Shown piece after piece: positions 21,171 through 54,465 of a stretch of 60,596 nt of DNA (within the stretch, counting starts at the first letter, position 1; each line of letters opens with the position of its first letter). The DNA comes from Clostridia bacterium (lineage in GTDB: Bacteria > Bacillota > Clostridia > Christensenellales > UBA1242), in the NCBI GenBank assembly GCA_017468205.1, contig JAFUJK010000083.1:1-60596 (forward strand), given 5' to 3'. Position numbers and translations under genes: made by a program. The notes below the pieces were generated by a model that saw only the letters and a program-made list of their open reading frames with translations, was not told the DNA's origin and ran no database searches.

Positions 21171-24161
21171 TTATGAATTTTGTACTAATGTTGGATATTG
21201 GTCTTGAACAAAGTTCCAATATTTAGAGTCAAATCCACGGTTAGTAAATGTTGACATCTTCTTACAATTTTCGTCACTAGTCCAACCATCGTCCGGTGAA
21301 GCCCAGTCGATAACGAAGTTATATGAACTTGTCAAACGTGTTCCGCCGTGCTTTGAGTTTACGATACATTTCTCAACCACACCCGCAACCTTGTTGTCTT
21401 CACCAAAGATTGCAGTAAATGGGTTGTGTACTGAATATACTTCACTCTTTGTTTCAGCATAAGCCTTGCTTCCTGAAATTGAATAGTCAAATTCAGAGTT
21501 AGCAAAACAGTATGCAACGCGACCATATCTGTCTTTGTTTTGAATTTCAATATCAACGGCAAATCCAGCCATAACTTTACCAGCAAGTGTACATTCTGCG
21601 TAGCAGTTTACGATAGAACCAGCCACAATCACACTTGCAAGCCCACCTACCTTTTCACCGCCAATAAAACCAGTTGCGTATGAGGTTGAAACCAAATTCT
21701 CAGAGCCCTCGCCCTCTAACCAGCCAACCAAACCACCAGCATAATAACCGCTGATTTCCATTGAGGTTGCGCTACAATCAGAAATCAAAGTGCCATCTCC
21801 ACTGTAACCAGTAATACCACCAACATATGATTTATCACCTGTACTTACTGAAGCATTTATCTTACCAGTAAAATTACATTTTGATATTGAACCATCGGAA
21901 CTTACACCTACAATACCGCCAGCAGTTGCATCAGTATCACTTTGCGCAAAAATTTCATAAGCATACTTGCCATCGCTTGTAAGTCCACCATCATAATTAG
22001 AATTTACAATCTTAGAATTACCGCCCAATTCACCAACAATTCCACCAACAAAGTTGGTTTCCTTTGATTGAACTTTAATATTCAACGATGCAGTACAATC
22101 TTGAATCAATGCATCTTTTCCTGTTTTACCAGCGATACCACCAGCATAGATGCGATTATCTGCGTTAATGTTAATACCCTCAAAGTTTGTGTCTGCATTT
22201 GAACGCACTACACAATCAATGATTTTACCATAGTTCAATCCAGCAATAGCACCTACCCAAGCATAAACATCATCACTAGCAACCTTTGTTATTTTAACGC
22301 CCTCAATAATTAGGTTTTCTGCAACGCCTTCGCTACCAATCATACCAAAGAAACCATTAAATCTATTTTCAGTGGTGATTACTAGGTTGCGAATTACAGG
22401 CATAGAGCCGTCAGCTTTTGCTACTCCATACATTTGACCATTAAATGGTGTAAGGGAATCGCCGATTGGAGTCCATTCCTCACCAGTCAAATCAATGTCG
22501 CTGTCGATTTTGTACTTATTGTTGTAAATACCATCGTCAGCAAGGTCAGCAGCAAGTTCGTCAAGCAATTTTTGTTTTCCAGAAATAACAACCACGTCAA
22601 ATTCGTCATAAATTCCGTTGTTTACTGGAACAGCATTGTCTTTAATAAATGGATAACCATTGTTAACTGAAGGGTCGATAGACCAAAGATTATCAAAGTC
22701 CCATGTTACCATTTCGCCGTTCACATCATAACCAATGTAAGCAACATTTTCGCTAGGCATATTTGCTTCTTTTACTGCGCTAAATTGCTCTGCATTTGGT
22801 TTTTTCTTCAATGTTTCAGCAGTAACGCCATAAGCAAGATATGCAGTTGTAACGTCATCAAAATCATAAATACCAGTTGTTACTTTTTCGCTCTTTTGAT
22901 AGAAGTTACCCAAAATACGGTTGTAATTCTTGTATGCTTCGTCTGGTTTAAGCTCTGGCTGAACAGAATTCAATCCATTCAAGTTAAAAGCAATCAAGCC
23001 AGCCACAAAATCTTCGCCTTTCATCTCGTTTTTAATAACTGCATAACAATTAATAACCGCACTCTTTTGCGAATCGTTTGTTTCAGCTGTCATATTAACT
23101 AAACTTGCAGTAATTCCACCAGCAATACTTGATTTTGAAGCTTCTGGTGTCGCAAATGTAGCATCTACAACACCACAATTACTAATCATACCAGCCCTAA
23201 CTACAGAAGAGATACCACCCATACACGCAGTTGTATTAGCTGATAAAATTAAGTTAGAAACGGTTGTATAAAGCACTTTCGCAAGATATGCTCCGCTTGT
23301 GCCATCAAGAATACCAACAACACCACCAATATAAGCAGCTTTTTCAATTGTAGCATTTGCATTAACTACAGAATTTGAAACAGTAACAAAACTTACTTCA
23401 CCCATGTTATATGCAGCAAGTGGCGCAACATTATCATAATTTCCATCAAGTTTAAATCCAGTAAGATTCAAGTTTGAAACTTTTGCACCAGTTTTGATTG
23501 TACCAAAAAGTCCAGCATTTTTCAAAGTACTAGGTGCAACAACTTCGCCCTCGCTCAACATAGCAGAACCTTCTTGTAACAAATGAAGGTTACTAATAGT
23601 GTGCTTACCACCATTGTAAGTACCACTAAAACCATCGTCGCCACCGATTGGAGTCCACGCAGTTTGCTTCTCAACACTCATATCAATATCAGCAACTTGT
23701 TGATAGTTAGCGGTCAATGGGTGCGCTGGACCGATTGATTTCAAGTCTTGATAGTCGCGAATATAGAATGGGTTTTCAGTAGACCCAGAACCAACGTAAA
23801 CTGCAACATTTACGTTCTTGTAATCCTCGTTTGTGGTAACGAGTTGAATTGTTGTATTACCGCCAGCAAGAGCCTCAAATCTCCAAGATTCAACGTTCTT
23901 GTCGTCAGCAAACTTTTCTTTAAATTTAACAATTTCCTCATTCATACTAACAAGGCTGTACTGGTCAGCAGAAGGATTCTCACGAGTTACAGTTACTACA
24001 AAAGTTTCGCCTACGTTGACATATTTAGTAGTAGATTGACCATTTTCGCCCCCCAAGCTAAACACTTCGTTGTTGAGCATAAAGTAGTAAACAGACAACC
24101 CGACACTAATGCCGACAATTACGATAAGCAAAAAGATTAAAAATCTATTGAGCCATTTCAT
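21171..24161 (-). CDS. Large surface protein with GLUG-type beta-helix repeats (two tandem modules)
   Basis: N-terminal TM anchor; GSGSTENPFYI; repeated DID..WTPIG..F.G, V/AGGIVG motifs; two W.F..W..YP module ends. Confidence 0.8.
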   Translation of the reverse strand: MKWLNRFLIFLLIVIVGISVGLSVYYFMLNNEVFSLGGENGQSTTKYVNVGETFVVTVTRENPSADQYSLVSMNEEIVKFKEKFADDKNVESWRFEALAGGNTTIQLVTTNEDYKNVNVAVYVGSGSTENPFYIRDYQDLKSIGPAHPLTANYQQVADIDMSVEKQTAWTPIGGDDGFSGTYNGGKHTISNLHLLQEGSAMLSEGEVVAPSTLKNAGLFGTIKTGAKVSNLNLTGFKLDGNYDNVAPLAAYNMGEVSFVTVSNSVVNANATIEKAAYIGGVVGILDGTSGAYLAKVLYTTVSNLILSANTTACMGGISSVVRAGMISNCGVVDATFATPEASKSSIAGGITASLVNMTAETNDSQKSAVINCYAVIKNEMKGEDFVAGLIAFNLNGLNSVQPELKPDEAYKNYNRILGNFYQKSEKVTTGIYDFDDVTTAYLAYGVTAETLKKKPNAEQFSAVKEANMPSENVAYIGYDVNGEMVTWDFDNLWSIDPSVNNGYPFIKDNAVPVNNGIYDEFDVVVISGKQKLLDELAADLADDGIYNNKYKIDSDIDLTGEEWTPIGDSLTPFNGQMYGVAKADGSMPVIRNLVITTENRFNGFFGMIGSEGVAENLIIEGVKITKVASDDVYAWVGAIAGLNYGKIIDCVVRSNADTNFEGININADNRIYAGGIAGKTGKDALIQDCTASLNIKVQSKETNFVGGIVGELGGNSKIVNSNYDGGLTSDGKYAYEIFAQSDTDATAGGIVGVSSDGSISKCNFTGKINASVSTGDKSYVGGITGYSGDGTLISDCSATSMEISGYYAGGLVGWLEGEGSENLVSTSYATGFIGGEKVGGLASVIVAGSIVNCYAECTLAGKVMAGFAVDIEIQNKDRYGRVAYCFANSEFDYSISGSKAYAETKSEVYSVHNPFTAIFGEDNKVAGVVEKCIVNSKHGGTRLTSSYNFVIDWASPDDGWTSDENCKKMSTFTNRGFDSKYWNFVQDQYPTLVQNS

Positions 24162-24435: not shown

Positions 24436-26374
24436 TTACGTCAACTTATCCGTATTATTTGTTTCAGTATTTACATTTGAACTTATTTGTGAAAAATTGG
24501 CAATTATAAGTTTTCCAAATGCTTGCTCTTTGGTTAGCTGCATGCTCAAACTTGTTCCGAACGAATTTCCATCGCTATCCGTCCAGCCGTCAAATTGATA
24601 ACCCGCGTATGCAACCGCAATGCACGTAATCGTGTCGCTTTCCTCACTTAAATCCGAGCCTGTTATTCTGGCTTCCCCGCCATTGGTGGCTTGAATGGCG
24701 ACGCCCTCAATACTTGTGCCCGCGCTATTTTTTAAAACTGGCTTTGTATTAATAAAAGTAAGATAAATACCAAAATCCGCACTGATGTAATCAATTTGAA
24801 GAACAAGCATATTGCCATTTTCATTGATTTTGTACTCAATGCTAGCCGAACTTCCCGAATTTTCAAGCAATCCCGTTCGCGTTTCAAAAACTTGCGTTTC
24901 TCCACTTGCAACCGAAATTGCGCTGAAATAATATCCGCTTGGCGCGGTCAAATAGTATGTAAGTGTGTAGTTTTGGTCGCGTGAGAAGTCGCTAGTAAAA
25001 GTTTGCGAGCCTGTGATAGTTGCAGTAAAATACTTTATGAAATATGCAGTATAAGTCTGCGCACTGCTCGCAGTTATCGTCAGAGGATTGCTCTCATATG
25101 TTCCCCCTCCGCTGTCCTGCCAGTATGCAAATATACTACCATTTATTGGATTGGCTGTTAATGAAACTAATGTGCCACTTTCATATGTTCCCCCTCCGCT
25201 TACTGAACCATAAGAAGAATTAGAAGTGTTTGCTGTGATTAATACTCCAGTTTTGAAATACGCCTTGCAAGTGATAGTCCCTGTTACCGCAAAAGAATAT
25301 GGGTTACTTTCCACACGAGTTGAGCCAATCATCCAGTAGTCAAATAGATATCCTGCATTTGGCGTTGCTATAATTGTTGTGATGGTGTTATATTTTATCG
25401 CCCCACCGCCACTTGTCGTACCATATGAGGAGTTGTTTGTTGAAAGCGTTACATTAAATTCAACACAACTAGCTAGACTATTCAATGAAATGTGAGCGGC
25501 AGGACGCACACCGCGACTAAAGAAAGTACTGCTGCGGGAAACGGAGCCAGAGGAGGATATTAGTAACGCGACGTCGTAGTCGCCAGATTCGCCAGAACGC
25601 AGCCAACAATAGTCTGTAGACATTTCCCTATCTGTGTCATCTAGCCCCCAAAAAGAGAAAGTTTCATAATAACTTGGAAGCCAGAATTTATCTGTAACTG
25701 TTGATAATACACCTAAACTACTAATATAGTCATCAGTGTATTGCGTATCTTGTGCTGTCTTATAGCTACTACTCATACTACATGGCGAAACGGTGATTGA
25801 GTTAAGTACTGGATAACTGCTCGCGCGAGTTGTGAAATAATTTTGCACTGTCGTGCGTATATCTGAACTACTATAGTCATTGTTTGAACTAGCAAATGTG
25901 GCAGTTGTGTAGTAATCACACATCCACACGGTAATAATGTCTGTGTTGTTTGGGTCGCGATACACCACTTGCCAAGCGCGACCAGCCATTGTAAAAACTA
26001 TCGGAGTTCCGCCGTCCAAAGTTCTCACTGTTCCAGTTTTCGAGCCCAATTTGCTAATTAAGGAATTATATACTGTTTCATTTACTATACTGCTTCCACT
26101 AGTGGATAATGTTCCAAGTGATGTGTAACTTTTTAATGCCGAAACGCCGTTTAAATCATTTAAAATCAAAAAAATGCTTCCGCCTGTTATAGCGATAAAA
26201 AGAAGGATTAAGGACAGAATTAGGGCAATCACTTTGCCTCTTTTTTCTTTATTTTTAGGGTTGTTTAAATTGTCTGAAAAGCCTTTATTTAAGCCATTTT
26301 CAGCAATTTTTTCGCTATTTAGCGCCCCCCCCCCCCTGCGGAGTTTTTGGGGTGGATAAGTGGTCTTTTTTCAT
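24436..26374 (-). CDS. Surface protein: TM anchor, DUF6273-like domain with putative DGR variable region, InlB-B-like repeats; 5' end frameshifted at a G12 tract
   Basis: GGAGG-N8-ATG at 26374; that frame stops after the G12 tract, main 598-aa ORF is 26232-24436; repeats ATPNAGYLFDYW, ANPINGSIFAYW, AYAGYQFDGW. Confidence 0.75.
25498..25605 (-). other. Putative DGR variable region
   Basis: WLRSG-26 codons-GVRPA; 21 of 26 codons end in C/T (14 in C), none encodes Asn, as expected for randomised AAY codons. Confidence 0.65.
26325..26336 (-). repeat. G12 homopolymer (candidate phase-variation tract)
   Basis: 12 C on the plus strand, inside the 5' coding region; G11 or G14 joins ATG 26374 to the main ORF. 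Confidence 0.75.
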
Positions 26375-28923: not shown

Positions 28924-30119
28924 TACTGCACGTTCACCTTAACAATATTCTTTTTGCCTTTTTTAAGCACAAAACCATCAGCAGGGCAAGCAAATTCAAG
29001 GTTGTCGACAACTACATCATCAACTTTAACACCGCCACCTAAAACCAATTTCTTTGCATCGCCACGTGAACCAGCAAATTTGAGAGCCACAAGACAATCA
29101 ATAATGTTCAAACTATTCTTATCAAGAGAAACTTCTGGCATATCCGCTTCATTTCCACCGAAAGCACCGCGAGCCTGTTTCAACGCCTCATTTGCACTTT
29201 TCTCACCGCGAACGATTTTTGTAACTTCAAAAGCAAGACGCTCCTTAGCCTTATTGATTTCTTTACCCGTTCCTGAACAAATTTCCTTAATCTCGTCAAG
29301 TGGCAACAAGGTGAGCATTTTGAATACTTCTTCCACCTTGGCATCTTCGATATCGCGGAAGTATTGGAAAAAGTCGTAATCGCTCGTTTTTTCGCGAGAA
29401 AGCCAAACAGCACCACCAGCAGATTTACCCATTTTAGTGCCATCTGTTTTTGTAAGCAAAGGTGAAGTCATACAATAAACAGGCTTATTTTCTTTTTTGC
29501 GAATTAATTCCGCACCTGCCAAAATGTTAGCCCATTGATCGCTTCCACCAAGTTGAACGCTACAATTGTATGTTTTAAACAAGTGGTAAAAATCGTAAGC
29601 CTGCATAGGCATATAGTTAAATTCAAGGAAACTTAATCCATTTTCCATACGTTGTTCAAAGCACCCTGAACTCAACATTTTGTTTACACTCATATTAAGT
29701 CCGACAACATTTAAAAAGTCGACATAACTTAATTTACTTATCCAATCGTCGTTATCTACAACAATTAATTTATTTTCGCAATCAGGGTCAAAGAAAGATT
29801 CAAATTGCTTCTTAATTTTACGAATATTCTTGTCGCGTTGTTCATCTGAAATCATAGGGCGCATATCATTTCTACCCGAAGGGTCTCCAATTTTACCAGT
29901 AGCACCACCAACCAATGCAATTGGTGTGTGTCCTGCCTTTTGCATACGAACCAATTGAAGTATTAAAGCCAAATTCCCCACGTGAAGGCTGTCAGCAGTT
30001 GGGTCAAAACCACAATAGCAAACAACTTTTTCCTTATCTAGTAATTCGCGCAATTCATCAGGGTAAATTGATTGATAAATAAGACCGCGCTCGTTCATTT
30101 CGTCAAATACATTTTTCAT
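28923..30119 (-). CDS. tyrS: Tyrosine--tRNA ligase
   Basis: YCGFDPTADSLHVGN, QLGGSDQW, KMGKS, S4-like C-terminus. Confidence 0.96.
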   Translation of the reverse strand: MKNVFDEMNERGLIYQSIYPDELRELLDKEKVVCYCGFDPTADSLHVGNLALILQLVRMQKAGHTPIALVGGATGKIGDPSGRNDMRPMISDEQRDKNIRKIKKQFESFFDPDCENKLIVVDNDDWISKLSYVDFLNVVGLNMSVNKMLSSGCFEQRMENGLSFLEFNYMPMQAYDFYHLFKTYNCSVQLGGSDQWANILAGAELIRKKENKPVYCMTSPLLTKTDGTKMGKSAGGAVWLSREKTSDYDFFQYFRDIEDAKVEEVFKMLTLLPLDEIKEICSGTGKEINKAKERLAFEVTKIVRGEKSANEALKQARGAFGGNEADMPEVSLDKNSLNIIDCLVALKFAGSRGDAKKLVLGGGVKVDDVVVDNLEFACPADGFVLKKGKKNIVKVNVQ

Positions 30120-54267: not shown

Positions 54268-54429
54268 TATTTATCTCCAAAATTTTGTTTTAAATTATAA
54301 ATTATATTTTAAACCTTTTATATAAATAAGTCAATAATAAAAGACGTAAATTATAAAAAAATATACCGATTTTTTGAACTTCTATTTTTTCGTATATTTT
54401 TAATTTTCAAAGAAAAATAACCTATTTTA

Positions 54430-54465
54430 AGTACTATGCATAGGTATTATGCATAGTACTATGCA
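54430..54465. promoter_or_regulatory. Nested palindromes, possible operator
   Basis: agtactatgcata-N5-tatgcatagtact (13-bp IR) overlapping the 16-bp palindrome tgcatagtactatgca. Confidence 0.45.

Follow-up and report, generated by a model that had tools for sequence, protein, structure and literature searches.

A diversity-generating retroelement variable region that has probably left the rewriting cycle, in a family of 20 paralogous genes fitting one template

Does a short run of atypical codons in the middle of a gene mark a variable region (VR) of a diversity-generating retroelement (DGR), and is such a region still being rewritten? The question is raised by a gene on a contig of 60,596 nucleotides (nt), analysed here over its whole length and called the window, from a Clostridia bacterium. 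The window is contig C76 of the genome G000 (GCA_017468205.1; 1.23 Mb in 92 contigs, 36% G+C, completeness 94.6%). A first-pass annotation, made from the letters of the window, had proposed a DGR-type VR between the protein motifs WLRSG and GVRPA. Judged by its sequence, the segment is a DGR variable region by descent, and a matching template repeat (TR), an Avd gene and a reverse transcriptase (RT) gene are all present in the genome. Nevertheless, it falls short of what is expected of a target under current rewriting. The window VR is most likely out of the rewriting cycle, a frozen (retired) copy whose binding site would now be fixed. The features on which this answer depends are as follows.

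24436 to 26232, minus strand: target gene, 598 amino acids (aa), from the open reading frame (ORF) list and translation
25495 to 25609, minus strand: VR homologue, 115 nt, aligned without gaps to the TR at G000:C90:622-736 (minus strand), 74 of 115 positions identical
25513 to 25590, minus strand: core of 26 codons between WLRSG and GVRPA, in our reading formerly diversified, from the codon list
25495 to 25512, minus strand: candidate initiation of mutagenic homing (IMH) site, the G+C-rich 3' end of the repeat, GGTGTGCGTCCTGCCGCT, encoding GVRPAA and identical to the TR at 16 of 18 positions

The stretch from WLRSG to GVRPA occupies 25498-25605 on the minus strand, and the VR corresponds to residues 209-246 of 598. 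Between the two motifs lie 26 codons that read exactly as the first-pass annotation had listed them, 14 of them ending in C. In the remaining gene, C-ending codons make up 109 of 562 (19%; binomial p = 9.5e-5 for the core). The G+C content is 56.5% in the 115-nt segment homologous to the TR, compared with 41.0% over the whole gene.

The template lies on another contig. Repeats within the window were surveyed down to the 20 largest direct families and the 25 longest inverted pairs; none of them includes 25495-25609, and the TR is absent from the window. We compared the genome with itself by BLAST and kept a repeat pair if 80% or more of its mismatches coincided with A (or with T) in one of the two partners. 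This filter reduced 5398 hits to 19 pairs, and in 13 of these the A-rich partner is C90:622-736 (minus strand). This repeat of 115 nt encodes no protein, and the sequence around it has stops in every frame. It has the form TGGCTGCGCTCCGGC, an AAC-rich stretch, GGCGTCCGTCCTGCC, almost letter for letter the template that the first-pass annotation had predicted, and in the frame of the VR it reads CWLRSGNSNNNNNAMQVNSSGSANNNNVNNSNGVRPAA. The window VR differs from it at 24 of 32 template adenines and at 17 of the 83 other positions (odds ratio 11.6, Fisher p = 1.2e-7). Opposite the 14 template codons AAC or AAT, 11 codons of the window keep the template third base while their first two bases differ. 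The surplus of C-ending codons therefore exists because the third base of AAC/AAT was retained and the first two were scrambled. Since the template was found, it seems that a DGR can be recognised reliably by a G+C-rich patch of NNC codons, even with the element itself on other contigs.

The same comparison bears on the simplest alternative, in which the patch is unrelated to any DGR and is a conserved lectin-like loop whose Ser/Gly-rich composition gives C-ending codons. To our knowledge, the C-terminal motif WLRS...GVRPA of DUF6273 is conserved in proteins without a known DGR; the match of the window protein to this Pfam family is weak. Composition does not account for an ungapped match of 115 nt to a non-coding AAC-rich repeat, with mismatches enriched 11.6-fold at adenines, nor for the retention of the template third base just described, nor for sister genes that match the TR perfectly at all non-A sites. 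We give this explanation almost no credence, and for practical purposes the template match refutes it.

How the window VR stands among its relatives was assessed by scanning the TR against the genome, ungapped and then with gapped alignment. Overall, 20 distinct paralogous loci fit the one TR. Flank identity exceeds 93% in one pair alone, C26/C32, and there on one side (downstream 98.6%, upstream 90%); the 20 loci are therefore distinct and not one locus assembled twice. At roughly 20 genes of about 2 kb, the family takes up an estimated 3% of the 1.23-Mb genome. All 20 loci have the repeat within a long ORF; the VR there forms the C-terminal end of a DUF6273 domain, ahead of Flg_new_2 repeats, and 253-537 residues follow the VR where the 3' end was assembled. 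The first-pass annotation had singled out the mid-protein position as a departure from the C-terminal norm. The position is real, but it is the rule in this family and has already been published for DUF6273 targets. Seventeen of the 20 loci carry 0-8 non-A mismatches to the TR together with 12-22 mismatches at A, and three of these (C41:32505, C90:42928 and C22:176) have no non-A mismatch at all alongside 15-19 changes at A. Mismatches confined to A are the signature of mutagenic homing, suggesting recent activity at the clean loci. Across 46 homologues the consensus is CWLRSGxSxxxxxAxxVxSSGSAxxxxVxxSxGVRPAAHISL, and its variable (x) columns coincide exactly with the A-containing codons of the template.

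Three members of the family are outliers, the window copy with 17 non-A mismatches, C7 (7164-7278) with 14 and C21:18628-18742 with 28. In the window copy, the 17 non-A differences are scattered along the whole repeat, and 12 of them fall in the core (repeat positions 19-96), where the 17 clean copies have 0-6. Thirteen of the 17 run from G/C to A/T, which is the way drift should go in an A+T-rich genome, and seven are silent third-base changes (C/G to T) in codons otherwise unchanged. Outside the template adenines, the window VR is identical to the TR at 66 of 83 positions (80%), which equals the identity of the upstream part of the gene to its nearest paralogue, C21 (79% over 839 nt). Because homing replaces the whole VR, this non-A drift suggests that the window copy has gone unrewritten roughly since the paralogues began to diverge. 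The description of DGR targets in the available part of PMC5758913, in which differences are confined to template adenines with minor exceptions, does not hold for the window VR. Its 17 non-A differences exceed the curated maximum of 11, so the window copy fails as a currently rewritten target. The mismatches are thus enriched at template adenines, as the first-pass annotation had foreseen, but they are not confined to them, and its DGR-type VR stands by descent, with the TR, bAvd and RT in the genome, rather than by present rewriting. The C7 and C21:18628 copies have drifted like the window copy; if the latter is retired, it is not the sole retired VR.

The enzymes that a working system would need are encoded elsewhere in the genome, which has two RT genes. 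The first, at C82:27299-28471, shows the motifs IGNQTSQ and YMDD in its translation and matches RVT_1 (E = 2.9e-14). Upstream of it and overlapping it is a bAvd gene (PF22296, E = 1.3e-14, above the cut-off), and the pair spans C82:26821-28471. The NCBIfam model DivGenRetAVD scores 41.3 bits, under its cut-off of 80. The best match of the RT among solved structures is 8ub7_A (E = 2.1e-29), which its depositors name 'Reverse transcriptase' alone and which we take to be a Bordetella phage enzyme. Altogether, the C82 RT looks like a DGR-type enzyme, and Avd, RT and TR look intact. The second RT, at C67:9459-10835 (L010), is of the Drt2 defence type (PADLOC E = 5.8e-135) and has no connection with the DGR; the distance between it and a DGR target gene on this contig (VR at C67:1136-1250) is about 8 kb.

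Repeats around the DGR-type RT were inspected over C82:22001-32000. A repeat of 115 nt in this interval (29401-29515 and 29614-29728, 70% identical) was considered as a TR/VR pair and rejected: its mismatches are unbiased, it lies inside an ORF of 363 aa, and it reads as a tandem domain repeat. A short A+T-rich element 3' of the RT (C82:28446-28573) recurs with 77-92% identity on at least seven other contigs, including the window at 54425-54464, and is probably a promoter- or terminator-type repeat.

We compared samples by Logan consensus contigs, which drop minority variants. Contigs spanning the VR from run X1 (835 nt, the probable source run) and from run X2 (569 nt, a second sample of the same study) show no difference from the window, at the level of the consensus. 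The read-level variation for which the first-pass annotation had called thus did not appear in these contigs, which counts as weak evidence. The identical protein, P0050, is recorded on three contigs. Two sets of candidate alleles were set aside. The records P0050, P0051 and P0052 are the same sequences with other called starts, and a joint at 25513/25626 with loose ends near the VR, considered as alleles of the window locus, was read as paralogous VRs. A search of metagenome contigs with a pattern of the window-specific VR flanks around a free core of 78 nt returned no matches. Among 30 relatives there is no orthologue of the gene, a flank of 260 nt beside the neighbouring gene alone being conserved.

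These results have to be weighed against the view that the window VR is still a working target, rewritten rarely or by an RT that errs at non-A sites too. In that case homing would have produced the 17 non-A differences as by-products, or they would be drift tolerated between rare events. The TR, Avd and RT are present and look intact, the G+C-rich 3' end of the window repeat is largely preserved (16 of 18 positions), and other copies in the genome carry 2-8 non-A differences. Moreover, as reported in the available part of PMC5758913, some DGRs do make non-A changes: these occur in 23% of the curated DGRs, with up to 11 in one target. What this view does not explain is the extent and character of the differences in the window copy. 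They run all along the repeat, their number in the core is 12 compared with 0-6 in the clean copies, the seven silent C/G to T changes are what ordinary drift predicts, and the total of 17 goes beyond the maximum of 11 in that curated set (PMC5758913, as far as available). The contigs of the two runs also show no variant, a weak argument. We therefore consider a working target unlikely and prefer a frozen copy.

Non-A differences could also mislead if the wrong template were used for comparison. A second TR in the unassembled part of the genome, with T, T, T... at the sites where the C90 TR differs from the window VR, would make the window copy appear drifted when it is not. The genome is 94.6% complete and in 92 contigs, the relative G012 has two TR-like A-rich repeats (C70 and C55), and the three outliers share a few non-A differences, such as TGC to TGT and AGC to AGT. 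Nonetheless, a genome-wide scan of G000 found no template that fits the window VR better, and the TRs of relatives fit it no better either (17, 23 and 27 non-A mismatches). At many non-A sites the outliers disagree among themselves, so no common second template is indicated, and the changes that they share are silent C to T changes, easily recurrent in an A+T-rich genome. We regard a hidden second template as quite improbable.

Several observations nevertheless weigh against a frozen window VR. Non-A changes are already known at up to 11 per target (PMC5758913, available part), about 5% of the genome is unassembled and leaves room for a second template, and G012 appears to hold its two TR-like repeats. 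At the protein level, three of the 21 codons of the window VR without template A are changed, which is mid-range for homologues (0-9). Of the two differences in the candidate IMH, one (GTC to GTG) is shared with C67:1136, a copy that is otherwise clean. With 16 of 18 positions intact and this change seen in a clean copy, a disabling lesion is not demonstrated. Finally, invariance among contigs does not discriminate, as P0004 (C21), a paralogue with a clean VR, is equally unchanged on two contigs.

Where would homing be directed in a VR that lies inside a gene? In all in-register copies, the homology between TR and VR stops within the GVRPAA codons. Downstream of the repeat, the VRs continue with CACATYTC... 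(HISL), whereas the TR continues with TCACTCCC... Because the homology ends inside these codons, the homing signal of the family probably lies within coding sequence, much as the first-pass annotation had anticipated. The G+C-rich end of 18 nt, GGCGTCCGTCCTGCCGCT in the family, is the candidate IMH. We looked for a conserved hairpin 3' of the VR by folding four copies and found none: two folded no better than shuffled sequences, and the structures were unlike one another.

The position of the template is unusual. The TR lies 621 nt from the end of contig C90, with no RT in the 42 kb on its other side, and the 26.8 kb upstream and the 6.4 kb downstream of the Avd-RT pair on C82 contain no TR. 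From these distances to the contig ends it follows that the TR and Avd-RT are more than 7 kb apart in G000. The relative G002 has an RT that is 85% identical and a TR that differs from the G000 TR at four of 115 positions; its TR locus, 81% identical over 361 nt, sits between unrelated genes on a contig other than that of the RT. In G012, the RT and the two TR-like repeats are again on separate contigs. TR and Avd-RT are thus on different contigs in all three genomes of this RT lineage.

The TR locus itself has features of a transcription unit. A promoter-like TTGCAA-18-TAAAAT is found at C90:848-819 and a terminator-like hairpin at C90:386-360, and the predicted TR RNA would run from about C90:810 to 350 on the minus strand. 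G002 conserves about 250 nt 3' of the TR, with nine doubly changed base pairs in a fold of the two sequences, and this pair of sequences gives a hint of a conserved, covarying 3' flank. We therefore describe the locus C90:350-850 (L021) as one that looks like a free-standing RNA gene. A search of the locus against Rfam gave one sub-threshold match at chance level (nqrA-Marinomonas, 24.5 bits, cut-off 95.5). G+C-rich palindromic repeats (GGGCGGGCGC...GCGCCCGCCC) flank the locus at C90:240-340 and 950-1060 and recur on C22, C8, C16 and C87.

Taken together, a possible cycle can be outlined. The Avd/RT pair would copy the TR RNA, misreading its adenines, and the complementary DNA would be pasted over the VRs of some 17 paralogous genes, with the G+C-rich end that encodes GVRPAA presumably acting as a homing signal within the reading frame. 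The window copy would have been written by the DGR in the past and not overwritten since.

The protein that carries the window VR is laid out as follows, in addition to the features given above.

26158 to 26232, minus strand: hydrophobic N-terminal stretch, residues about 1-25 (VIALILSLILLFIAITGGSIFLIL), read from the translation
25471 to 26079, minus strand: DUF6273-like (C-type-lectin-like) domain, residues about 52-254, from Pfam, homologues and ESM Atlas
25039 to 25236, minus strand: best-scoring Flg_new_2 unit, residues 333-398, one of three matched stretches

From its translation, the N-terminal stretch is likely a signal peptide or membrane anchor. The match of the window protein to the Pfam family DUF6273 (PF19789) reaches 18.3 bits (E = 0.0023, profile positions 76-171 of 172) and misses the cut-off of 23.5. 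Among the 46 homologues, 30 match DUF6273 at E <= 0.001, and the ESM Atlas neighbours of residues 52-254 are DUF6273 clusters (feature score 0.93, structure TM 0.65-0.80). On the strength of these homologues and neighbours, the window domain is a divergent member of DUF6273 by homology. A sequence search of the PDB returned weak matches to OPG161 alone. C-terminal of the VR segment follow 352 residues with three stretches of Flg_new_2, a divergent InlB B-repeat (Pfam E = 6.8e-27), in agreement with the roughly 350 aa of InlB-B-like repeats noticed at first pass. This stalk is present in all 46 homologues, with Ig_2 in one and PKD_3 in four. The target protein is presumably displayed on the cell surface.

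The gene neighbours are housekeeping genes (EF-Tu, EF-G, TyrRS, DnaE, UvrC and SpoIIE), and the target gene sits in the core chromosome, outside any prophage. Comparing the domain by tblastn with 50,697 phage records gave no match at E <= 1e-3. A neighbouring gene at 21171-24161 on the minus strand encodes 996 aa with a hydrophobic N-terminal segment and a GLUG motif (PF07581, E = 4.5e-8), and is probably another large surface protein; relatives conserve 260 nt at its start alone. Within the target gene, the 5' part is nearest to C21/C88 and the 3' part to C41. In runs X3 and X4, other gut samples with related strains, 24436-25107 (the repeat-stalk part) is covered at about 98% identity, and the DUF6273/VR part is uncovered. 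This partial cover and the split affinities fit mosaic recombination among paralogues.

It is possible, and we propose it tentatively, that in this gut bacterium with a small genome a free-standing gene for TR RNA serves 17 clean internal VRs in a family of 20 genes for DUF6273 plus InlB-B surface proteins, and that the window copy and two others show an exit route. If true, this would be the largest one-template repertoire that we found in print, and a case of a DGR template inherited as a separate gene. The exit route would consist in a target dropping from the cycle, with its binding site fixed. The hallmarks of such a post-cycle target, namely scrambled A sites, A+T-ward drift elsewhere and an intact frame, would supply a criterion for telling live from frozen targets in metagenomes. 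The system would further be a compact natural case of a homing signal accommodated in a reading frame and of a template RNA kept as a separate gene.

We finally compared this system with known DGRs. Its unusual points are the separation of the TR from Avd-RT and the 17 clean targets; internal DUF6273 VRs are already published. VRs are typically C-terminal because the IMH would otherwise overlap coding sequence, according to the available text of PMC8144416, and internal VRs, whose IMH necessarily overlaps coding sequence, are on record in that of PMC5758913. For Faecalibacterium prophages, the portion of PMC11792537 available describes VRs that form the C-terminal end of DUF6273. In the corresponding portion of PMC10743442, the 'tentaclins' of gut Firmicutes phages have an N-terminal DUF6273 domain with the VR, followed by Ig-like domains. 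The window protein is alike in that its N-terminal DUF6273/C-lec domain carries the VR. By contrast, the tentaclins as described there are phage-encoded and have an Fn3/Ig stalk with a C-terminal Ig domain anchored in the virion, whereas the window protein is chromosomal and has an Flg_new_2 stalk. A full-text search of one literature library found no Flg_new_2/InlB B-repeat stalk as a DGR target. The present system also differs from tentaclins and DUF6273 phage targets in having 20 paralogues on one TR, and in the window copy being mismatched at non-A sites.

Systems with many targets offer a second comparison. The DGR of Treponema denticola has seven non-adjacent targets and that of Stenotrophomonas eight in tandem, the largest number given in the available part of PMC5758913, while at least 12 targets are reported for Trichodesmium erythraeum in that of PMC4143802. 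The Treponema and Trichodesmium systems resemble ours in that one TR serves dispersed paralogues, with ligand-binding targets of lectin fold. Here, however, there are 17 near-clean and three drifted VRs, the VRs are internal, and the TR is not beside the RT. In Thiohalocapsa PB-PSB1, incomplete DGR loci act in trans, and variation is absent from at least one target (PMC10907252, available part). That system is similar in having components at separate loci and targets of one system that differ in activity. Its silent target (DGR 1), as presented in that text, matches its TR at all non-A sites, and the window copy does not; decay is therefore visible in the window sequence itself, unlike in Thiohalocapsa DGR 1. 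The avd-TR-brt element behind Mtd of Bordetella phage BPP-1, the reference DGR, as described in the available part of PMC5758913, shares with our system the Avd and RT pair, the adenine-specific differences and the G+C-rich end of the repeat, where an IMH is expected. The BPP-1 VR forms the very C-terminus of its protein, its IMH is intergenic, and a G+C-rich inverted repeat is present; here, by contrast, the four folded copies show no conserved hairpin, and the candidate homing signal would also be translated, as GVRPAA(HISL).

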